Shown here: one piece after another, positions 20,062 through 64,000 of the stretch
Position numbering within the stretch: position 1 is the stretch's first letter
Layout of the letters: the number at the start of each line of letters is the position of its first letter
Origin: an uncultured euryarchaeote
GTDB lineage: Archaea > Thermoplasmatota > Poseidoniia > Poseidoniales > Poseidoniaceae
Assembly: GCA_937899865.1 (NCBI GenBank)
Contig: CALBRH010000063.1
Coordinates: 1,957-65,956, forward strand
Direction of reading: 5' to 3'
DNA length: 64,000 bases
The notes under the pieces: model-generated
Told to the model about the DNA's origin: nothing
The model's input: the letters and a program-made list of their open reading frames with translations, nothing else
The model's database searches: none
Program-made: the position numbers and the translations under genes

Positions 20062-21186
20062 ATGACGCGGGAGGTTAAGTTGATGGGAATCCCTCAACTG
20101 CTCCAGTTTAACACATTACTGATTTTAGCAACTTTGTTTTTGGCTATAGTTGGTAGTCAAATAATGTCTGCAAACCTTGGTGGAAGTAATATCATTTATT
20201 CAGTCATAATTTTATTGCTTGCATTAGGATTGTTGGTCGTATCTGCTGACTTCTTTATTGAGGGTGCAAAGGGTTTGGCAAGGAGAGGTGGTATACCAGA
20301 AGTTGTAATTGGTCTGACCATTGTGTCCATTGGTACATCTTTACCAGAAATATTGGTTACCTCCACTTCAGCCTTAAATGTAGAAAGTAATCCCGAAGTA
20401 GCAGATTTCGCAATTGGCGGAATATTGGGTTCAGTTTTAGTTCAAATAACTTTGATATTGGGTTTTGTCGCCCTTGTAAAAGGTCTCAAAATTCGACCAT
20501 CATGGCTTAACCGTGATGGTTTAATCATGATGTTATCTTTGCTTTTGATGACCTTTTTCTTAATCACTGATGAAGGTATAACAAGAATCGAAGGAATTAT
20601 TCTTTCAAGTTTGTACATTTTCTATATTGGTTGGTTACTTTACAATAGGAAGGAGATAATGGACCAGGAATCTAGTGGTGAAGCAGAATCAATCGAATTG
20701 AAGAGTCTTTCATGGTCTGGTGCTGCTTATTTCGTGATGGTTCTTATTGGCCTTGCATTGGCTGTTTTTGCCGCGCACCATCTTGTGGTTAATGCTAGTG
20801 ATTTAGCATATGAAATGAATATCCCTCATTCTATAATAGGTACAGTAGTATCAGGTCTTGGAACATCATTACCAGAATTAACAATTGCCTTTATGGCTGC
20901 AAAACGTTCTCAAGGTGTTGCGATTGGTACATTGATCGGCTCAAATATCACAGATCCTCTATTGTCTATTGGTGTCGCCTCTATCGTACATCCTCTATAC
21001 TTGACTGAAGCAGGTTCTGACATGATAATGTTGGTTATCTTGCCAGCCTCAATTATCAGTACAGCAGTTGCACTACTATTGATGCGAACCTCATATGAAT
21101 TTAGAAAATGGGAAGGAATCGCTTTGATTATGTTATATTTCATTTTCTTAGCAGTTTGTGAATACTTTAGGCGAGTCGGTTTCTAA
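20062..21186 (+). CDS. Ca2+/Na+ antiporter (CaCA/YrbG family)
   Basis: Two alpha-repeat signatures (GTSLPEILV and GTSLPELTI) in a 10-TM-like protein. Confidence 0.8.
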   Translation: MTREVKLMGIPQLLQFNTLLILATLFLAIVGSQIMSANLGGSNIIYSVIILLLALGLLVVSADFFIEGAKGLARRGGIPEVVIGLTIVSIGTSLPEILVTSTSALNVESNPEVADFAIGGILGSVLVQITLILGFVALVKGLKIRPSWLNRDGLIMMLSLLLMTFFLITDEGITRIEGIILSSLYIFYIGWLLYNRKEIMDQESSGEAESIELKSLSWSGAAYFVMVLIGLALAVFAAHHLVVNASDLAYEMNIPHSIIGTVVSGLGTSLPELTIAFMAAKRSQGVAIGTLIGSNITDPLLSIGVASIVHPLYLTEAGSDMIMLVILPASIISTAVALLLMRTSYEFRKWEGIALIMLYFIFLAVCEYFRRVGF

Positions 21187-54246: not shown

Positions 54247-57207
54247 TCATTCGTATAGGTCTTCGAATTCATTGGCCATTGATTCGGCCAATCTTCTATT
54301 TCTTGCACTGATAACTTTTCTAAGTCTTTTCAAGCGTTTTGAAATGAATGCTAACATAATAAATCCTAGACAAAGTGTAACCAAAGTTACTATTCCTGCC
54401 GTCTTGAATTCCTGTTTCTCTAAGCTATCCGAAAAATTACCTAGCCATTCACTGTTTAATGGTGGTTCAGGCTCAGGTTCAGGTTCTGGAATAATATGTT
54501 GATTGTATGACCACCAATCATCTTCTATGTACACTCTTTCGACATTTGGTGAAGGATAAATTGCTACAGTACGCTCATTACCATATTGATCGGTGGGGGT
54601 TAAGATATAGTAGAAAGTCTTCATTGGTCTAATACTATCATCATCAATACCATTTTCAGTATATTGATAATTCTCTCCTGCTGTATAAGCAATATTTTCT
54701 AACACTGGTTCAAGTAAATGTAAATTGATGCCATTAGGGTTTTGCTCAATACGATATAAGTTCCAAGTTTCATTTTCTTCACCTTCTGGCCAAGTCCATG
54801 AAATTGTTACTTCATAGCACATATTCCAATCTTTAAGAATATCAAAACATGCAGTATCATTGGTGAATCTCCAACTATTTTGCATATTTATTACAGAAGT
54901 GGATGGCGGTGTTGAATCACCACAGATAAATGTCGCGTTTCCATCGATCATTGAAACGTTTGCTAGATGATTAAATGTTTCACCAGTTCTATCAACTGGG
55001 ATTATAGCATATGATGAACAAAATCCGTCAGGAATTGCGATTGTGTCCTGCCAATTAGTCTGATCAATTGGGATGAATTCTCTAAATGATTCTTCAACTA
55101 GACTTTCCCAAACCGCTTCATTATAATCTAGTTGAGGTGATGGGAAAATTGTACCACCAAAATCAGGAACAAGTTTCTGATGTATGTTCCAACCAAGAAT
55201 ATAATCGCTTTCTGTATCACCATAAGGTTGCCAATTCAGATTAAAGTTCCCGTTAGCGATTAAATCAACTGAGAAATTTAAAGCCTCGATATTAGGTTCG
55301 CCAAGATCTCCAATAAATAGAATCGTGGTGGCTTCATAGACTTTGATTGACATTTTAGTTTGGTTGATATATCCAACATTATCAGAATTGAAGAATTCCC
55401 ACTCAGTGTCACTAAAGGAGTCTAATTTTCTTATTTCTATCGATGATAATGGTACTTGTGAAGGCATTAAATCGAAGAGACTTAATTCAATTTCAATCCA
55501 GTTCTGGCCATTGAAATCAGATTGATTAGTTTGGGAATTGATTAAGTCAAATTGCAATAAAAACAACGGACTTTTGCCACCTCCGATGTTATATCCTTCT
55601 CTCTCCATAGGTAATGTAGAATCATGTAAAATCTGTACGGTATCAGTTGCAGAAATCGCACTCGCTTCATACAATGGAAGATTTGAAATTTGTACTTCAG
55701 TATAAACTAATATGTTGAAATAAATAGTTTCACTATTGCCTAAGGAATCACTGGTAATTAATTTGAAATCATGACTTCCTAGGCCATAATCTGATGTGTT
55801 AATCTGTGTGGTTTGACCATAATCTATGTTTATTATTCCCGAATACCACCAAGAAAAATTTACAGGAGGTGATGAATATGGATTTATGTTTGCTGATATT
55901 GTAATTATTTCATTATCCGTATACCATTCCTTTTCATTATCAATTTCAATGCTACTCATTAGTTGAGGTATAATGACGCTTGTGGTTTCTTCTAATACAT
56001 TATCTAGTGGATTTGTATCTTGATTATTCATTACATTGTCTTGAAGTATAGCTTTTATCAAGATAGATTCGCCTTCGAAAGTCATGTCAAAAACACAATT
56101 TTTATTTTGTTCAGGAATTAGAATAGTTATTATACAAATTTGTGAATTGGTTTTCTCACCATTAGAAAGTTCCAATTCTAGTTGGACATTCTCTGCCGTC
56201 ATGTTGGCATTGTTACTTACTTGAACATTAATCATATTAACTCCATAAAAGTAACTTGTTGCAGATGGATTATGGCTTGGAGAAATACTATCTATTGAAA
56301 TATCTAACTCAGTATTGATTTTTACAATTACAGAATTTAGATTATTTGATTCAAATAAATCACTGAATGGGTTTCCAGTTGAATTAAAAATCCCATAAAT
56401 AAGTGTAAATGTGCCATCCTCCGAATGGTTGAATGTTGGTAGATTCATAGTGAAAGACTTATAGAACGAGAGTTTTGGATAATTTTCTTCAAAAATATAA
56501 TTTTCATTAACCATCTCAGTTTGATTTTCATCCCAAAGTTGCCATCCTAATGTAGTATTAACATTGCAAGAGGCGCAAATGTTGGCATATCCCGAAAATG
56601 ATATTTCGTATTCTGTATTATTGGAGAGTATTTTCTCTCCATCATAAATTGCTAAACCGTTCAATTGATCAATAATATCTTCATTATCTTCAATCATAAT
56701 ATCAGTATATTGCAACGAAGCATTAAGAATGAAATTAAATATATCATTGCTTGGATTAAAATCTAATTCTTCAAATTGGTATACTACAGTAATTGTTTCA
56801 TTAAGTCCATTTGGATAGAACGCGTCACCAGAAATAAAACTCGAGGATTCTCCTGGAAGCAAACTATTGATAGAGATTTCACCCTGTGCTATTTTGTTAT
56901 TAATACAAACATTTGAGACCTTTTCTCCAAGACAAACATACCAATCTATGATTCTGTTTGGAGATGTAAAAATGTCTTGATTAGTTACAGTTACTTCAAA
57001 ATTTGTTGCTGAATATGCCGGGATGTAATCATCATTACTTGGACTGGAACTGTCGATAGACAAATCTCCGCTAACAGAAGCTGTAACATTAGGGGAATAA
57101 TTGGTGATAATTAGTGTGCTAAATAATATCAAAAAAGCAACTAACATTGATGAAAATCTACCGACATCATTGTTAGCGCGGGCTACACTCATACAGTTGC
57201 CTGACAT
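54247..57207 (-). CDS. Large (986 aa) Asn/Ser/Thr-rich surface protein with an N-terminal signal and a C-terminal TM anchor (putative S-layer/adhesin-type glycoprotein)
   Basis: N-terminal hydrophobic MLVAFLILFSTLIIT. Many N-x-S/T sequons. A PEPEPEPEPP linker precedes the TM helix TAGIVTLVTLCLGFIMLAFI and a basic tail. No enzymatic motif. Confidence 0.6.
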   Translation of the reverse strand: MSGNCMSVARANNDVGRFSSMLVAFLILFSTLIITNYSPNVTASVSGDLSIDSSSPSNDDYIPAYSATNFEVTVTNQDIFTSPNRIIDWYVCLGEKVSNVCINNKIAQGEISINSLLPGESSSFISGDAFYPNGLNETITVVYQFEELDFNPSNDIFNFILNASLQYTDIMIEDNEDIIDQLNGLAIYDGEKILSNNTEYEISFSGYANICASCNVNTTLGWQLWDENQTEMVNENYIFEENYPKLSFYKSFTMNLPTFNHSEDGTFTLIYGIFNSTGNPFSDLFESNNLNSVIVKINTELDISIDSISPSHNPSATSYFYGVNMINVQVSNNANMTAENVQLELELSNGEKTNSQICIITILIPEQNKNCVFDMTFEGESILIKAILQDNVMNNQDTNPLDNVLEETTSVIIPQLMSSIEIDNEKEWYTDNEIITISANINPYSSPPVNFSWWYSGIINIDYGQTTQINTSDYGLGSHDFKLITSDSLGNSETIYFNILVYTEVQISNLPLYEASAISATDTVQILHDSTLPMEREGYNIGGGKSPLFLLQFDLINSQTNQSDFNGQNWIEIELSLFDLMPSQVPLSSIEIRKLDSFSDTEWEFFNSDNVGYINQTKMSIKVYEATTILFIGDLGEPNIEALNFSVDLIANGNFNLNWQPYGDTESDYILGWNIHQKLVPDFGGTIFPSPQLDYNEAVWESLVEESFREFIPIDQTNWQDTIAIPDGFCSSYAIIPVDRTGETFNHLANVSMIDGNATFICGDSTPPSTSVINMQNSWRFTNDTACFDILKDWNMCYEVTISWTWPEGEENETWNLYRIEQNPNGINLHLLEPVLENIAYTAGENYQYTENGIDDDSIRPMKTFYYILTPTDQYGNERTVAIYPSPNVERVYIEDDWWSYNQHIIPEPEPEPEPPLNSEWLGNFSDSLEKQEFKTAGIVTLVTLCLGFIMLAFISKRLKRLRKVISARNRRLAESMANEFEDLYE

Positions 57208-57314: not shown

Positions 57315-58400
57315 ATGGTCTCCATGCAATCATCTTTGCAAAGAGATGAAAATGGTATGACAGCAGTTATTGAGTTCTTAGCAGCATTCACTCTTTTTTT
57401 GATGATATTAACTGCATTTTTATCATTAGCACAGCTGGAGATGGGTTCAAATGATACTTCGGTTGATAGATTAGATAGAGCCGCAGCGCAAGGTCTTGAC
57501 AGAATGACCTCAGACGGCGGTTGGTTTGTACCAGTATTTGATGATGGCTCTTTGGATTATGAAAATTCAACCTCACATTGGCACCTTCAGCCAATTGATG
57601 AGTTAAATCAAGGTATTGTTTTAGCAGGTTTGATGGGATCTAACACATTAGATTTTGATAAGATTGAAGCATTGAGTAATTTGACCGAGGATAATTTGGC
57701 AAGAGGTTTGGGTCTTAGTGATGAATTCAGTATAAATTTAGAGATTAAAATTACTGAATCAAATATTCCTTCTAGAGATGATTTAGTACTATTTTCAGGC
57801 GGTACTGAAAGAGGAACTGCTCAAGCATCATCGTCTTCATACAAAGAATTACAAGTTGGGCAAGAAAAATTCTTGATAATATTAGAAGTTCATAATGGCG
57901 GCAGGAAAGCCAATAATCTACACATTACCGAGATTAGTCCACGCTCAGTTTCTGGAGCTCCAGAGTGGATAGAATTGTATAATCCTAATAACTTCGCAAT
58001 AGACTTGAATGGCTGGAGTTTTTCACACACATCTTCTAATCAAGACACAAATCTATTGCTTAGAAAGGGTGTGATTTCGGGCAACTCTCTAACCTTGTTT
58101 AGCGGCGATCCAAATGTTCAACAGATTGGGGATGCCGACCATGTTATTGATTTAGGAAGTGAAGGATTCCTTGGAGTGGGGCAAATCGATTTATTGAATG
58201 ACGGCGGCGGAGAGTTAGTTTTATCATATACTCAATTAAGTGAATTTCAGCCGTTTGAAGTTATGCGAGTAACTTGGGGAGGGGATACAGGATTCTTTTT
58301 GACACCAAGCCAATCATTGCAATATGTGACCGATAATTTCCCTCCTGAACAGCAAGATTGGCAAATTTCTAACAACCCAAGCCCGGGAATCATTGAGTAG
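57315..58400 (+). CDS. Lamin-tail-domain (LTD) protein with a pilin/TadE-like N-terminal hydrophobic segment
   Basis: The N-terminus QRDENGMTAVIEFLAAFTLFLMILTAFLSL resembles class III/TadE-type signal sequences. The C-terminal ITEISPRSVSGAPEWIELYNPNNFAIDLNGWSF matches the LTD hallmark (EWIELYN...L.GW). Confidence 0.6.
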   Translation: MVSMQSSLQRDENGMTAVIEFLAAFTLFLMILTAFLSLAQLEMGSNDTSVDRLDRAAAQGLDRMTSDGGWFVPVFDDGSLDYENSTSHWHLQPIDELNQGIVLAGLMGSNTLDFDKIEALSNLTEDNLARGLGLSDEFSINLEIKITESNIPSRDDLVLFSGGTERGTAQASSSSYKELQVGQEKFLIILEVHNGGRKANNLHITEISPRSVSGAPEWIELYNPNNFAIDLNGWSFSHTSSNQDTNLLLRKGVISGNSLTLFSGDPNVQQIGDADHVIDLGSEGFLGVGQIDLLNDGGGELVLSYTQLSEFQPFEVMRVTWGGDTGFFLTPSQSLQYVTDNFPPEQQDWQISNNPSPGIIE

Positions 58401-58441: not shown

Positions 58442-59257
58442 ATGAACCTGCGTGATTTAGGGGTAGTGTTCCACATGCAGCCAGCTACTGTGTATTCACG
58501 TGACAGATGTGTTACAGGTGTTCACGGTCTTGATGAGATACTTAGAGGTGGAATACCTTACGGTTCGACAGTATTGGCCGCAGGTACTTGTGGTTCTGGA
58601 AAAACTACATTGGGAATGGAATTCTTGGTGAGAGGTGCTAATGCTGGTGAAGCATGTGCGCATTTTACTGCTACAGAACCATCAGTAAAATTGCTAGAAA
58701 ACATTCGTCAATTTGCATTTTTCGATATGAACATGGTAGATACTGGATTAATCAACGTATTCGATATGGATGTTCTATATTCTTGGCTAGGTTTGGAAAA
58801 ATCAACTTTTGATTTAGAAGATGTTCATTCACTAATCAAATCAATCGTAGATATTGTAAATACAATTGGAGTAACAAGATTAGTTATTGATTCGGTAACT
58901 ACATTATGTTACAAAATTAAATCAGAACAGTTGATAAGAGATTTCCTGTTCACTCTTGGTAAGAAATTAGCCACACTGGGTTGTACTACCATTCTGATTG
59001 CAGAGATTACTTCAGCAACTGAAAATGCTCACTGGTCTTCTTTTGGTGTAGAAGAAGCGATTTGTGATGGTATAATTGTTCTTGGCGATGTTGAAAGAAT
59101 GGGTCATCTACTTAGGTTCTTGCAAGTGGTTAAGATGCGAGGAACTCCTCATAGCAGGGCTAAGCATGCTATCGAATTGACACCTCTTGGTGTGATGCTG
59201 ACACCTATGCTTAAGTGGGGTGCAATAAGCGATAATGTAAATCGATGGGGTAGTTGA
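58442..59257 (+). CDS. KaiC/RecA-superfamily ATPase (single-domain, COG0467-like), motifs intact
   Basis: GLDEILRGGIPYGSTVLAAGTCGSGKTTLG (Walker A), RLVIDSVT (Walker B) and VVKMRGTPH. The true start may be the ATG at 58475. Confidence 0.8.
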   Translation: MNLRDLGVVFHMQPATVYSRDRCVTGVHGLDEILRGGIPYGSTVLAAGTCGSGKTTLGMEFLVRGANAGEACAHFTATEPSVKLLENIRQFAFFDMNMVDTGLINVFDMDVLYSWLGLEKSTFDLEDVHSLIKSIVDIVNTIGVTRLVIDSVTTLCYKIKSEQLIRDFLFTLGKKLATLGCTTILIAEITSATENAHWSSFGVEEAICDGIIVLGDVERMGHLLRFLQVVKMRGTPHSRAKHAIELTPLGVMLTPMLKWGAISDNVNRWGS

Positions 59258-59258
59258 G

Positions 59259-59843
59259 ATGTTTGAATTAGACCAAGGAATTGCAGATCAGTTAACCGAG
59301 GTTTCACTAAACAGTTCAGTTCAAGTTAGGTGTGGCAACTCAAATTCATTTATGGTTACCGCAAGCACCTTGATTCCTCTATTACAAATGTTTGAGATGA
59401 AAGGAGTTTACATATCGGCTAGTCGTGGTGCTGCTGAGATAATTCAAGCATTCGAATCGGTAGGTATTGATGTTTCACAGATTCAATTCATTGACTTAGT
59501 CTCATCAGGAATTCTTGGTGGCACTAATGTCCCATATTCTAACGTACATTTTGTAGATAGTCCCATTATGCTTGAGTCGATATTACTTCGAACATTGTAT
59601 ATTTTGCAGACCAACCAATCAGAAAGAAATTTTGTCTTTGTAGATAGCGTGAATGCACTAGCGATTTACAATGACGATAGGATGCTTGCTGAATATCTGC
59701 ACACTTTCATCAATACATTTAGACAACAGGAGGTTCTATCTGTTATTCTCAATGTACCAGACCAAACTCCGCCACTAGTCTTATCAAACTTAGATTTGTA
59801 TTGTACCGATTTGGTTGACAGAGGTCAAGTAGTAATTCATTGA
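59259..59843 (+). CDS. Degenerate KaiC/RecA-like protein lacking a P-loop
   Basis: It starts 1 nt after the upstream stop. It keeps a KaiC-like strand order (VYISASRG..., FVFVDSVNAL, VLSVILNV), but the P-loop position reads CGNSNSF. Confidence 0.45.
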   Translation: MFELDQGIADQLTEVSLNSSVQVRCGNSNSFMVTASTLIPLLQMFEMKGVYISASRGAAEIIQAFESVGIDVSQIQFIDLVSSGILGGTNVPYSNVHFVDSPIMLESILLRTLYILQTNQSERNFVFVDSVNALAIYNDDRMLAEYLHTFINTFRQQEVLSVILNVPDQTPPLVLSNLDLYCTDLVDRGQVVIH

Positions 59844-60658
59844 TGGGTGATTATATGTCTAAAGAGATTCAATTTGACTCAGAAGATGAGGAGTTTTTCG
59901 GCTCAGTTGGATCATTTGGTGTTCCCAAGTTTGACAATGAAATGAGAGGAGGAGTGCCTCGTGGTTTCACAATGATTGCGTTTACAGAAACAGGTTCAGG
60001 TAGTGAGTTGTTTGCCAAGCAATTTGTATCTCCTGCCGAAGAGGCTGAAAATACCATTTACATCTCAACTAACGAAGGTCAGGCAGAAATAGTTCGGATT
60101 TTTCAGAAATATGACTGGCCACTGGATATCAATGTACGTACAATAGGAGAAGAGTATAATTCTAACGTTTTGGAAAAAGAGTTACTTGCTAGCAGGTATC
60201 GTTTGGAAGGTTTCCGTTTGGAGGATATTCAAAGGTTAGCTCAAACAAGATTTGTTGAAGAAAATAACCAAGATTATCTTACTGAGGTAACCAATGAAGT
60301 CATGGCGCTTGGACCCTACTTTAGAGCAGTTGTTGACAGTCTCGATTTCTTTTTGCAAAGAGACGATCCTACAAGAGTAGTTGCTATGGTTAGAATGCTT
60401 CAAGCACATGCACAAATGTATCGAGGGTTGCTGTTTATTACTGTCTCAACCGATGGTCTTTCTCTAAGCATAAAACAAGAATTATCCTCTATTGCCGATA
60501 TGGTATTGTCGTTTCAAGTTAGAACGATAGGTAGCGATTTCGAAACTTCAATGATGGTTTCAAAGTTTAGAAACGCACCTGAAAATTTGAAAATCTTGGT
60601 ATTCAGAGTTACTCCGGAGGAAGGAATAACACCAGAAACCGTCGAGCGTATTGCTTGA
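59843..60658 (+). CDS. KaiC/RecA-like protein with a degenerate Walker A (GSGSE)
   Basis: The start overlaps the upstream stop (TGATG). Motifs are FDNEMRGGVPRGFTMIAFTETGSGSELFAKQF, AVVDSLDFF and MVSKFRNAP. Confidence 0.6.
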   Translation: MGDYMSKEIQFDSEDEEFFGSVGSFGVPKFDNEMRGGVPRGFTMIAFTETGSGSELFAKQFVSPAEEAENTIYISTNEGQAEIVRIFQKYDWPLDINVRTIGEEYNSNVLEKELLASRYRLEGFRLEDIQRLAQTRFVEENNQDYLTEVTNEVMALGPYFRAVVDSLDFFLQRDDPTRVVAMVRMLQAHAQMYRGLLFITVSTDGLSLSIKQELSSIADMVLSFQVRTIGSDFETSMMVSKFRNAPENLKILVFRVTPEEGITPETVERIA

Positions 60659-61533: not shown

Positions 61534-61860
61534 GTGATGGCAGTGGCAATGTCAGATGTCTTAAGAAAAATCAAACAAACAGAAAGAGAGGCGGCCCGTC
61601 AACTGTCTGATGCTAAAGATGAAGCATCTAAAATCGTTACAGATGCACGTAAAAAATCAGCAGAATTGCTATCCAAGGCATCCGAAGAATCAGTTTCTAA
61701 TACTCAGGCAACTTTGGATTCTGCAAGAGAAGAGGCATCTAAATCAGCAGATAAAGTGCTCAAAGAAGGTTCAAAAACAGTAGATTCAATAAGTGCTACG
61801 GCAAATAAAAATGAATCAAAAGCGGTAGATCATATCCTCAAAACGATGTCTTCATTGTAG
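61534..61860 (+). CDS. atpH: A-type (archaeal V-type) ATP synthase subunit H
   Basis: Small charged helical protein (VLRKIKQTEREAARQLSDAKDEASKIV...) immediately upstream of subunit I, as in archaeal atpHIK... operons. Confidence 0.7.
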   Translation: MMAVAMSDVLRKIKQTEREAARQLSDAKDEASKIVTDARKKSAELLSKASEESVSNTQATLDSAREEASKSADKVLKEGSKTVDSISATANKNESKAVDHILKTMSSL

Positions 61861-61870
61861 GTGTTAATCA

Positions 61871-64000
61871 ATGTTTGAAACTGCTGAAATGTCCAGACTT
61901 ACTGTGGCATCTCCAGTTGATAAATTAGAGGAAGTAATTCGAATCTGCGCAGATTTAGGATGTGTACATATTGAAGAATATGGCAACTTCGAAGACGGAA
62001 TAGGAGTCGGGCAATCAATTTCTTCCGATGAATCAGCCAAGACCAGTCAATTGTTAACCAAAGCTCGTGCTCTTCAATCTGAAATTAGTGCGATTAATAC
62101 GGATGGTCCAAAATCTCTTGCTGAAGTGAAGAAGTTAGTAGATTCTATGGCTTCAAAGATCGATGACGCTTTAGCAAATATCGATGAGGTTAGAGATTCA
62201 GAGTCTGAGATCTCCAATCTTAATGAAAGAGTAAAAGCGCTTGAAAGAGTAGCTCCTCTTGGCATACCATTGGACTTAATGGCCGGTTTTGAGGGTTTAG
62301 AATTATTTATTGCTGAGACATCTAAGGCTTCTAAAGCATATTCAGAATTTTCCGACATTTTGTCCAACATTGAACTTCAGGTGGCAAAGGGAGTTATTGC
62401 TGTTGCTTGCAGGCCATCAGATAGCGCTGCTATTCAAATCGGATTAAGTGCACTAGGTGCAAAACCAATTCAAATTCCATCTGGTGAAGGTTCTGCTGAA
62501 ACAATGATCGCAGAGGCCAAATCAAATATTGAATCTCTTGAATCAAGTATTGACTCATCAAATAAAGCAATCAATCAATGGAGCAAGGAATACGGAAGAG
62601 ATTTAGTGATACTTCTTGAACATCTAGAAAGGGAAGAATCAATTTACACTGCCCCAACACTTTTTGCAGTTAGTAACAAAGCATTTGTTCTGGATGGATG
62701 GGTGCCGAGTTCAGATAAAAGCAAAGTGGAAAGTGCACTTGGAAAAGTCGCATCACATATTTCTATAGAACAGCATGTTGACGACCACCATCATCATGAT
62801 GACCATGATGATTCAAGCCATGTAAAAGAAGTTCCAGAAGAACTTCAAATGCTTTCAGACTATCTTGAAATGAAGAATATTACTGTATTCGAATTTTTCA
62901 AGAGCATGGACTTAGATGAGTCTGGTGAACTGGAATTTGCAGAGATTGAGGCAGCGATGAAAAAAGCAGACATCCCTGATATGCCGCCGCTAAATATGGC
63001 TAGATTTTTAGCCGCTATCGATTTGAATCGAGACGGGAAAATAAACCTCCCAGAGCTTGATTTAGCGATTGGTGCAATCCGTAATGGATCTTATACTACA
63101 GCGGAACACCATGATGACGCACAACCCCCAATCAAATTTGAAAATGGAGAATTTTCAGAACCATTCGAACTGTTAGTAGATTTAGTTGGAAGGCCGAAAT
63201 ATGGAACCTTTGATCCGACACTATTGATGACTTTTACATTCCCAATATTCTACGGTATGATTCTAGGAGACTGGGGTTACGGTCTAGTTCTATGTGCTAT
63301 TGCAGCATACTTTGGAAGTAAACCATTCGCAGTAGATCCACTGGCTCAAAATGGACTTACAATTTTGAGATGGATGGGGATTTGGTGTATAATATGGGGG
63401 CTAATATTCGCAGAAGGTTTTGGTTTCGTTTGGGACGATACGGGTCAAATGGGCAATTCTTCACCATTCGATTTCATCTATGATTGGACCTATGCTAATA
63501 TTCATGTTCCAGGTACATTAGCAGACTTACTAGCAATGGGAGGATTACACGTGCCTTTCCATAGAGCAACTCCTGGAGGCGGCCTTCAAGAGTATGTAGT
63601 GTTATCAGTTTATGTTGGAATATTACATATTTTTGTTGGACTATTTATCGGATTATACACCGTCTGGAAGGCACATGGTGCAGCAGCAGCATTCTTCGAA
63701 AAAGGCTCATGGTTACTGATTATGACTGGCGGTACAATGCAAGCAAGAAACATGGTTATGGGATTCAATGAATTATTTGAATTCCAAATTTGGACACTAT
63801 TGATTGCTGTTGGATTGGTTTCTCTTGTTATTGGATTGGCAGTCTACGAGAAGTTTGGATGGGTTGGAGGCCTTGTAATGGGTCCAATTGAAATATTTGG
63901 CCTATTGGCAAATACTCTCTCATATCTAAGAATAATGGGCGTAGGTGTTGCAGGCGTTAAAATCGCAGAGATCTCTATCAATATGGGTTGGGAAAAAATC
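61871..64000 (+). CDS. atpI: A-type ATP synthase subunit I (stator/proton-channel a subunit), 5' part that continues past the window. It contains an inserted EF-hand pair.
   Basis: My own translation from the ATG at 61871 is open to the window end. It begins MFETAEMSRLTVASPVDKLEEVIRICADLGCVHIEEY. The later section reads PPIKFENGEFSEPFELLVDLVGRPKYGTFDPT and is followed by TM helices. It is absent from the ORF track because there is no stop in the window. Confidence 0.85.
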   Translation, partial: MFETAEMSRLTVASPVDKLEEVIRICADLGCVHIEEYGNFEDGIGVGQSISSDESAKTSQLLTKARALQSEISAINTDGPKSLAEVKKLVDSMASKIDDALANIDEVRDSESEISNLNERVKALERVAPLGIPLDLMAGFEGLELFIAETSKASKAYSEFSDILSNIELQVAKGVIAVACRPSDSAAIQIGLSALGAKPIQIPSGEGSAETMIAEAKSNIESLESSIDSSNKAINQWSKEYGRDLVILLEHLEREESIYTAPTLFAVSNKAFVLDGWVPSSDKSKVESALGKVASHISIEQHVDDHHHHDDHDDSSHVKEVPEELQMLSDYLEMKNITVFEFFKSMDLDESGELEFAEIEAAMKKADIPDMPPLNMARFLAAIDLNRDGKINLPELDLAIGAIRNGSYTTAEHHDDAQPPIKFENGEFSEPFELLVDLVGRPKYGTFDPTLLMTFTFPIFYGMILGDWGYGLVLCAIAAYFGSKPFAVDPLAQNGLTILRWMGIWCIIWGLIFAEGFGFVWDDTGQMGNSSPFDFIYDWTYANIHVPGTLADLLAMGGLHVPFHRATPGGGLQEYVVLSVYVGILHIFVGLFIGLYTVWKAHGAAAAFFEKGSWLLIMTGGTMQARNMVMGFNELFEFQIWTLLIAVGLVSLVIGLAVYEKFGWVGGLVMGPIEIFGLLANTLSYLRIMGVGVAGVKIAEISINMGWEKI
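62777..63124 (+). other. Insertion in AtpI consisting of a His/Asp-rich tract, two EF-hand loops and a second His/Asp tract
   Basis: Translated as VDDHHHHDDHDDSSH...FFKSMDLDESGELEFAEIEAAM...FLAAIDLNRDGKINLPELDLAI...TTAEHHDDAQ. The EF loops are at nt 62909-62944 and 63020-63055. Confidence 0.75.

Follow-up and report, generated by a model that had tools for sequence, protein, structure and literature searches.

Subunit I and its operon

The window (the whole stretch of DNA that was analysed, 64,000 nucleotides) comes from a Marine Group IIa archaeon (Ca. Poseidoniaceae) and ends within an operon for an A/V-type ATP synthase. The genes and large domains at this end are as follows:

61534..61860, + strand: atpH-like small peripheral-stalk subunit, 108 aa, directly upstream of atpI
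61871..64000, + strand: atpI, A/V-type ATP synthase subunit I (stator subunit a); the open reading frame runs past the window end
61871..62776, + strand: N-terminal cytoplasmic domain of atpI, aa 1-302, with proximal and distal lobes and coiled coil
63125..64000, + strand: start of the membrane (C-terminal) domain of atpI, with transmembrane helices, PPIKFENGEFSEPFELLVDLVGRPKYGTFDPT (phmmer matches to 8WCI, 5GAR and 5Y5X)

Translation of 61871-64000 (+) gives an unbroken 710-aa N-terminal part of a protein of about 782 aa, which is cut by the window end. The full-length protein P0001 (782 aa) shares 97% identity with it. The original prediction that the gene encodes subunit I is borne out by Pfam V_ATPase_I (PF01496; 70.5 bits against a cut-off of 30.7), by NCBIfam PRK05771.2-4 (E 2e-88) and by matches to subunit I/a chains in the PDB. 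NCBIfam equivalog cut-offs are missed (297.7 against 670), the window copy being truncated and the lineage divergent. The structure of the subunit I N-terminal domain, 3RRK, aligns by phmmer with residues 6-308 (E 1.2e-10). AlphaFold predicts strands at 7-15 and 296-301 in this domain, the latter (HISIEQ) being its final strand, with pLDDT mostly 70-90. In the membrane domain, the conserved arginine of LSYLRIM is R687 (nt 63929-63931); the stretch that holds it, LSYLRIMGVGVAG, pairs in the phmmer alignment with LSHIRIYAVGAAG of T. thermophilus. This essential arginine, which faces the c-ring, is invariant among 33 sequences.

The T. thermophilus A/V-ATPase subunit I (5GAR, 5Y5X, 6QUM; 3RRK) is colinear with atpI in both arm and membrane domain. 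Both proteins have the segment PFELLV..YG.FDPT and the motif with the essential Arg, and the Thermus protein has a short His/acidic junction, VDEHHEAD, at the place of the atpI linker. The chain 5gar_N, which is also the protein in 5Y5X, covers atpI residues 5-310 in the alignment and again 411-529. Since both stretches meet at chain residues 309-315, atpI carries about 100 extra residues at the junction. Thus the Thermus junction leads straight into the membrane domain, whereas that of the Marine Group IIa protein holds a predicted folded EF-hand pair of about 95 aa in its middle.

An EF-hand pair within an ancestral linker

The extra residues lie where the proximal lobe of the cytoplasmic domain is joined to the membrane domain. 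This part of atpI comprises these elements:

62777..62821, + strand: N-side half of the ancestral His/Asp-rich linker, VDDHHHHDDHDDSSH, aa 303-317, predicted to be disordered
62822..63100, + strand: inserted EF-hand pair module, aa 318-410 (EF-hand_7 pair, AlphaFold prediction, absent from sister clades)
62909..62944, + strand: EF loop 1, DLDESGELEFAE, aa 347-358 (PS00018 match)
63020..63055, + strand: EF loop 2, DLNRDGKINLPE, aa 384-395 (PS00018 match)
63101..63124, + strand: C-side half of the ancestral His/Asp-rich linker, AEHHDDAQ, aa 411-418 (alignment)

The cytoplasmic location that had been proposed agrees with this layout, as the insert follows the last beta-strand of the N-terminal domain and precedes the conserved PPIKF..PFELLV..DPT segment. 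It was first described as an insertion of about 115 aa, covering residues 303-418 (nt 62777-63124). The insertion is real but smaller: the net gain relative to the nearest relatives without the module is about 95-100 aa, about 20 aa of His/Asp-rich linker being ancestral. Similarly, the His/Asp tracts are present as described, but they flank the inserted module from outside and are the halves of a split ancestral linker. The view that they form part of the module was rejected because relatives that lack the module already have one unbroken His/Asp-rich linker (for example VDDHHGHDGHDDHHEPEPP, or VDDHHHAEGEHHASPP in the L063 type), in the middle of which the EF pair sits. The N-side half is homologous to the first half of that continuous linker; its H306 and H307 are invariant (33 sequences), and pLDDT is below 50 for residues 303-319. 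The C-side half, AEHHDDAQ, corresponds in the alignment to the HHEP(x) tail with which the linker of these relatives is written, and to DEHHEAD of T. thermophilus subunit I.

The two loops, each a canonical EF-hand loop in the original prediction, match PROSITE PS00018 at exactly the coordinates first given, and Pfam agrees. They are the sole matches to this pattern in the six-frame translation of the window (34,437 stop-free residues). When the atpI protein was shuffled 20,000 times, one match appeared in 0.37% of the shuffled sequences and two in none. The canonical EF-hand families of Pfam (PF00036, PF13202 and PF13499) score at or above their gathering cut-offs: EF-hand_1 at 29.2 bits (cut-off 25.4) and EF-hand_5 at 27.2 bits (cut-off 25.9) on the whole protein, and the domain pair EF-hand_7 at 30.0 bits (cut-off 30; aa 340-395) on the insert alone. 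Precomputed EF-hand Pfam marks are present on 120 of 120 atpI homologues among the matches listed. Both loops have ligands at positions 1, 3, 5 and 12, glycine at 6 and a hydrophobic residue at 8; the Ca2+-ligand geometry is intact.

The helices said to flank the loops are found in the AlphaFold prediction, in which the module is a four-helix EF-hand pair: two helix-loop-helix units, together with the paired short strands that characterise such pairs. Helices are predicted at 323-334, 339-344, 356-365, 373-383 and 393-404, and short strands at 353-355 and 390-392; pLDDT reaches about 70-80 in the core but stays under 50 in the tethers. The top PDB matches shown by Foldseek are EF-hand proteins or EF-hand-bearing components of large assemblies, with centrin, calmodulin lobes, troponin C, CaBP1, parvalbumin and a CDPK regulatory domain among the matches listed. 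Probabilities are mostly 0.9-1.0, but so small a domain gives weak E-values (0.01-0.2). In a sequence search of the PDB with the insert region, CDPK calmodulin-like domains came out best, with whole-sequence E-values of 2e-4 to 9e-3 and no single matched stretch under the E-value threshold by itself. Lobes of the calmodulin type (calmodulin, centrin, troponin C, CDPK) are thus the best matches of the module in both sequence and fold. They share with it two 12-residue loops, D/N/S ligands, Gly6, a hydrophobic residue at 8, Glu12 and four predicted helices. One difference is the setting, calmodulin being a free protein with four EF-hands and the module a single lobe inside the linker of a membrane protein. 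The full-length atpI model is poor (pLDDT 57, pTM 0.35), particularly in the membrane domain, so that it offers no prediction of how the module is placed with respect to rotor, stalks and channel.

Distribution and conservation of the module

The insertion had been predicted to be lineage-specific, and the survey agrees. Among species-representative Poseidoniales genomes (GTDB; the best 80 of 225 loci), 58 of 80 have the module at the same site and 21 lack it. The same architecture recurs in more than 100 independent 90%-identity protein clusters (ENA, JGI, Tara, Logan, NCBI). The segment is not common to ordinary subunit I sequences: none of 130 other full-length 50%-identity family representatives, from a library scan that covered the best 150 of 6,340 hits, has EF loops at this site, and independent EF-hand insertions in other subunit I lineages were rejected within that sample. 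In a neighbour-joining tree built with the linker masked, the EF-bearing sequences are monophyletic in 99% of 200 bootstraps. As they form one clade, their history is most simply explained by one gain and no loss. The sequences thus indicate one insertion, in the ancestor of one large Marine Group IIa clade that includes the genus MGIIa-L1, followed by vertical inheritance. As to a donor or paralogue, an HMM of the module found atpI alone in the six-frame open reading frames of the window and of the 80 loci (~1.1 Mb). The literature searched, on EF-hands in connection with Marine Group II, Poseidoniales, A1AO or ATP synthase, contains no description of the module; one paper remarks in general that Poseidoniales-specific protein families include calcium-binding domains (PMC9258230).

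The sister Poseidoniales (Poseidonia spp., L060-L066, P0121, P0122) have a subunit I that is 54-68% identical outside the linker, is encoded in the same operon and has the same His/Asp-rich linker. In these lineages, however, the linker is continuous, about 20-28 aa long and devoid of EF loops, and the protein has 676-699 aa against 777-802 aa. Some of them, Poseidonia and the L060-L066 clade, are close Poseidoniaceae relatives, and the module is therefore not essential to the enzyme. The gene order ubiE-atpH-atpI-atpK-atpE-atpC places atpH at the same position in L001 and other loci; the product of the window gene matches Pfam V-ATPase_G_2 (E 4.2e-5; 24.5 bits, under the 28-bit cut-off). The order atpH-I-K-E-C-F-A-B is found in L001 (100% identical to P0001) and across loci. 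The operon being unchanged between clades with and without the module, the module is their sole architectural difference. The CaCA exchanger gene (20062-21186) that had been noted in the same window is real, but it lends no specific support: it lies 40 kb from atpI and outside the operon, and is thus uninformative.

Conservation was followed in 33 diverse sequences. D347, D349, S351, G352 and E358 of loop 1 are invariant, as are D384, D388, G389, N392 and E395 of loop 2, position 3 of which is N or D. The proline at position 11 of loop 2, unusual for an EF loop, is also invariant. Outside the loops, the hydrophobic or Met residues M327, M376, F340, F342, F343 and L380 of the module are conserved. 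Mean conservation of EF loop 2 (0.93) exceeds that of the membrane domain (0.87). For the window and L001, the one pair in which synonymous sites are not saturated, dN/dS is 0.05 in the module and 0.069 in the N-terminal domain. For the other pairs dN alone is usable, and in most of the more distant pairs compared it is no higher in the module than in the N-terminal domain. These values show purifying selection on the module.

Possible roles of the module

That atpI contains a genuine, selected EF-hand insertion is very nearly certain. The chance that it is an artefact of chimeric assembly or of a frameshift, or that a mobile element or an intein sits in atpI, is negligible. Short CAT/GAT codon repeats do flank the insert, but the frame is uninterrupted, GC content shows no break across the insert, and the Pfam scan of atpI gave no intein or transposase signature. 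Hundreds of independent contigs, drawn from several sources and in some cases over 1 Mb long, show the same architecture; its recurrence in 58 species-level genomes and in the separate protein clusters, with purifying selection on the module, rules out the misassembly or frameshift that the original prediction had named as its own refutation.

What the module does is a matter of lesser confidence. The data suggest that calcium may act directly on the ATP synthase of this one Marine Group IIa clade. The whole explanation, a single inherited insertion resembling a calmodulin lobe and acting as a built-in Ca2+ sensor, has about an even chance of being correct, and for the narrower statement that the module is a Ca2+-responsive regulator the chance is even at best. 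On this sensor reading, the module would hang on two tethers, both predicted to be disordered, at the cytoplasmic face of the membrane, adjoining the pivot of the stator arm. The proximal lobe serves the arm as its pivot, and the arm is able to lock rotor subunit d (PMC7367684); the module would also adjoin the place where, in Thermus and yeast, this clamp can form. It would bind cytosolic Ca2+, which may change its conformation, the effective length of its tethers or its binding to a nearby helix, with rotor subunit C/d, the peripheral stalk and the interfacial PFELLV segment as candidates. Seawater contains about 10 mM Ca2+, and the outcome would be that coupling is tuned, or the enzyme braked, when this Ca2+ leaks in as ion gradients fail. 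A more specific form, in which the module is a Ca2+-gated brake or clutch, is tentative and rather unlikely: a rise in cytosolic Ca2+ would cause the tethered module to bind subunit C/d, the proximal peripheral stalk or a helix at the channel mouth, and so switch the enzyme between coupled, blocked and hydrolysing states.

The module could instead be a structural decoration, a stable spacer that is constitutively loaded with Ca2+ or Mg2+, or metal-free, and that lengthens or stiffens the linker without signalling; this is possible, though on balance doubtful. The junction is indeed a hot spot of length variation across archaea (23-95 aa), and sister lineages function without the module. A structural metal site would also conserve its ligand residues, so that ligand conservation, as read from the alignment, would fit a sensor and a permanently loaded structural domain alike. 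If the module were a mere spacer, however, selection would act on its folding alone, and EF loop 2 is conserved above the proton-translocating membrane domain, with neither loop lost or degenerate in any of the 58 module-bearing species representatives. Nor would two canonical 12-residue loops be needed, and other lineages expanded the site with low-complexity sequence (some representatives have acidic expansions of 75-91 aa). It is improbable, on the other hand, that the module is a docking or oligomerisation device, one that recruits another protein or a second ATP synthase, whether Ca2+-dependent or not, and serves localisation or supercomplex formation but not control of catalysis. This proposal likens the module to the calmodulin lobes or dockerins that bind partner helices, and EF-hand pairs do commonly bind amphipathic helices. 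The module gives matches to Dockerin_1 (E 0.033) and to the XopAW family (E 5.9e-6), but the former is weak and under its cut-off and the latter far under. The N-terminal domain of the eukaryotic a subunit is a known interaction hub (PMC3987144). Yet neither the operon nor its 6-kb flanks contain a clade-specific extra or partner gene or altered stalk subunits, and there is no paralogous module in the ~1.1 Mb of neighbouring Poseidoniales DNA.

Two known systems bear comparison with the built-in sensor. Mitochondrial carriers such as the ATP-Mg/Pi carrier SCaMC and the aspartate/glutamate carrier are membrane proteins of energy metabolism with an EF-hand Ca2+ sensor of their own, but they are eukaryotic, belong to an unrelated family and carry the EF-hand domain at the N-terminus, whereas the atpI module is an internal insertion. 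In Drosophila, Ca2+-calmodulin binds the N-terminal domain of the V-ATPase a1 subunit V100 at W318/F319/I328 of the 407-aa domain; this binding affects SNARE assembly and is not required for acidification (PMC3987144). The Drosophila sensor works in trans, as a protein of its own, whereas the archaeal ATP synthase has its EF-hand lobe in cis, fused into the subunit.

Few molecular machines have been studied as closely as the rotary ATP synthases, which are known to be regulated by inhibitor proteins, subunit conformations, nucleotide inhibition and reversible disassembly. To our knowledge, and in the literature searched, no rotary enzyme has been described with its own EF-hand Ca2+ sensor. The photoheterotrophic Marine Group II archaea count among the most abundant archaea of the surface ocean; none, as far as we know, has been cultured. 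Biochemistry is nevertheless straightforward without a culture, because the module is small and soluble and the sister lineages provide natural "deletion" alleles. If the module does act as a brake or clutch, it would be the first intrinsic second-messenger sensor in a rotary ATPase, and it would provide direct evidence that Ca2+ is an intracellular signal of energy status in abundant planktonic archaea. The conserved module thus offers a testable handle on archaeal cytosolic Ca2+ signalling and on how Marine Group II archaea handle ATP synthesis and hydrolysis under fluctuating ion gradients.

The atpI gene and the EF-hand pair within its product

The long reading frame that opens with the ATG at 61871 is an A/V-type ATP synthase subunit I gene. 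The window holds 710 residues of its product (full-length relatives have 777-802 aa), which match Pfam V_ATPase_I with 70.5 bits (cut-off 30.7) and the NCBIfam V-type ATP synthase subunit I models with E-values down to 2e-88. The protein is 97% identical to P0001, the subunit I of L001, a MAG of Ca. Poseidoniaceae labelled MGIIa-L1, in which atpI is followed by atpK-atpE-atpC-atpF-atpA-atpB. The gene and its upstream surroundings are as follows.

54247-57207, minus strand: 986-aa ORF with no Pfam match at E <= 0.001
57315-58400: ORF beside the preceding one, with a Lamin Tail Domain match (38 bits)
58442-60658, plus strand: three consecutive ORFs of 271, 194 and 272 aa, KaiC/RecA-like ATPase (PF06745; E 8e-53, 1.8e-5 and 1.8e-15)
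61534-61860: small atpH-like gene directly upstream of atpI
61871 to beyond the window end: long ORF, atpI, subunit I

The PF06745 trio lies just upstream of a ubiE-like methyltransferase gene and the ATP synthase operon. Just past the window end, atpK (8380-8700 in L001) encodes a c subunit of 106 aa with an N-terminal extension of ~40 aa, made of a signal-peptide-like hydrophobic stretch and then an acidic run. The Q of helix 1 and the P-E-S of helix 2 in its single hairpin recall part of a Na+-binding motif, so that the coupling ion of the enzyme is uncertain.

Two stretches of the window protein, residues 5-310 and 411-529, align with the T. thermophilus subunit I chain from the PDB; they abut at chain residues 309-315 (VDEHHEAD), which means that ~100 extra residues lie at one point of the query. 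The solved N-terminal domain, 3RRK, matches residues 6-308. Both the identity of the protein and the position of the insertion had been read correctly in the original prediction. The two EF-hand loops that it placed at 62909-62944 and 63020-63055 are exact in position and, as claimed, fit the consensus, both matching PROSITE PS00018. These are the only PS00018 matches in the stop-free six-frame translation of the whole window (34,437 residues); among 20,000 shuffles of the window protein, 0.37% contained one match and none contained two. Pfam EF-hand_1 and EF-hand_5 score above their gathering cut-offs on the whole window protein, and the pair model, EF-hand_7, attains its cut-off when the insert is scored by itself.

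AlphaFold models 296-301 (HISIEQ) as the final strand of the N-terminal domain and folds residues 323-404 into four main helices plus two short strands within the loops, a classical EF-hand pair. Confidence is low at 303-319 and 408-430, which are probably disordered. When the domain model was compared with the PDB by Foldseek, the top 50 matches listed included centrin, calmodulin lobes, troponin C, CaBP1, parvalbumin and CDPK, together with chains of large doublet-microtubule assemblies; probabilities were mostly 0.9-1.0, with E-values of only 0.01-0.2 because the domain is small.

The His/Asp-rich linker and the distribution of the module

The junction was compared in 130 full-length representatives of the family at 50% identity (from the best 150 of 6,340) and in the Poseidoniales loci. 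Its length varies across archaea from 23 to 95 aa. All module-less Poseidoniales and their nearest relatives have one unbroken His/Asp-rich linker, e.g. HVDDHHGHDGHDDHHEPEPPVAY, which in the window protein is split by the EF module (aa 318-410) into VDDHHHHDDHDDSSH and AEHHDDAQ. The His/Asp tracts are therefore ancestral. The original prediction had counted them as part of the inserted module; the insertion is real, but its net length is ~95-100 aa rather than ~115.

The linker itself (window 62777-62821 and 63101-63124, with homologues in L060-L080 and P0121-P0133) is kept at the arm/membrane-domain junction in all Poseidoniales and their nearest relatives, with or without the module. T. thermophilus has VDEHHEAD at this position, and an H-x-D motif precedes (V/P)P in many archaeal representatives. 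The linker might bind metal, sense pH or act as a proton antenna close to the cytoplasmic mouth of the channel. Several long representatives (P0185, P0193, P0202, P0204, P0239, P0241 and P0256) carry acidic low-complexity expansions of 75-91 aa here, which by their composition look halobacterial; the junction has thus been expanded repeatedly and independently.

In the sequences compared, the EF-consensus insert is not general to subunit I and is confined to one group. The best 120 of 606 homologues (identity down to 61%) all have EF-hand Pfam marks and a length of ~780 aa; they derive from assemblies of ENA, JGI, Tara, Logan and NCBI, some on contigs above 1 Mb. Among the best 80 of 225 loci from GTDB species representatives, 58 have both loops at the same position. 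The loops are absent from 21, whose proteins are 676-699 aa long and which include Poseidonia spp., Ca. Poseidonia alphae and the L060-L066 clade. Operon order and the lengths of the stalk subunits are equal with and without the module. At 50% identity, a single representative stands for the entire EF-bearing group, and the junction is free of EF loops in each of the other 130. A neighbour-joining tree computed with masked linker groups the EF-bearing sequences in one clade (bootstrap 99%), whose sister clade is module-less. For these sequences, the simplest history is one gain with no later loss. One EF-bearing subclade (L031-L049, e.g. L046 and CM001443.1, the first published MG-II genome) has a subunit I of 800-802 aa, vs ~782 aa in the others; the additional residues are not in the linker, which keeps its length of 118-120 aa.

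Constraint on the module and a possible role for calcium

In 33 diverse sequences, the ligand positions D347, D349, S351, G352, E358, D384, D388, G389, N392 and E395 are invariant, and position 386 is N or D. Mean conservation is higher in EF loop 2 (0.93) than in the membrane domain (0.87). Between the window and L001, the one pair with unsaturated synonymous sites, dN/dS is 0.05 for the module, 0.069 for the N-terminal domain and 0.004 for the membrane domain. Among the more distant pairs, the module mostly has a dN no higher than the N-terminal domain; a few, L009-L012 for example, depart from this. Therefore, from distribution, tree, conservation, dN/dS and operon data, artefact explanations are excluded, and the module is, as judged by these comparisons, under functional constraint. 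Chimeric assembly in particular, against which the original prediction had advised a check, is ruled out by the spread of the module over many assemblies and species.

Thus a canonical EF-hand pair by predicted fold, its Ca2+-coordinating residues intact, hangs on two flexible His/Asp-rich tethers and lies in series with the sole covalent connection from the stator arm to the membrane domain. Homology with T. thermophilus places it on the cytoplasmic face, with the arm's proximal lobe on one side and the membrane domain on the other. In published Thermus structures, the proximal lobe serves as the pivot of the arm, which can clamp onto rotor subunit d and so block rotation (PMC7367684). We suspect that the module binds Ca2+, and that the loaded form would shift its conformation or grip a helix close by; cytosolic Ca2+ might in this way act on the position of the arm, on coupling or on contact between rotor and stator.

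Seawater contains ~10 mM Ca2+. A low cytosolic level would be maintained by gradient-driven exporters, such as the CaCA-family Na+/Ca2+ exchanger, which is indeed present, as predicted, at 20062-21186 on the plus strand (PF01699, 167 bits, two repeats), 40 kb from atpI and not operonic with it. Since low Ca2+ depends on such exporters, a rise would report failing ion gradients; the enzyme might respond by curbing wasteful ATP hydrolysis, or in another way. This physiological logic is plausible. Eukaryotes offer a precedent for a Ca2+-loaded EF-hand protein that acts on this subunit: in Drosophila, Ca2+-calmodulin binds the N-terminal domain of V-ATPase a1, but it does so in trans and in SNARE regulation, not pumping (PMC3987144). 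The module could instead be a purely structural spacer, or a docking or oligomerisation device, and the sequence data do not separate a Ca2+ sensor from either.

A full-text literature search turned up no account of an EF-hand in any rotary ATPase subunit I or a, nor in a Poseidoniales ATP synthase; the one related item says in general terms that calcium-binding domains occur among the protein families specific to Poseidoniales (PMC9258230). In public records, the EF-bearing proteins are named "hypothetical protein" or "V-type ATP synthase subunit I". Within the literature searched, the built-in EF-hand module is unprecedented; the A-type ATP synthase subunit I that carries it is otherwise ordinary. 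The module is a real and conserved feature of globally abundant organisms, and the function we infer for it is readily testable.
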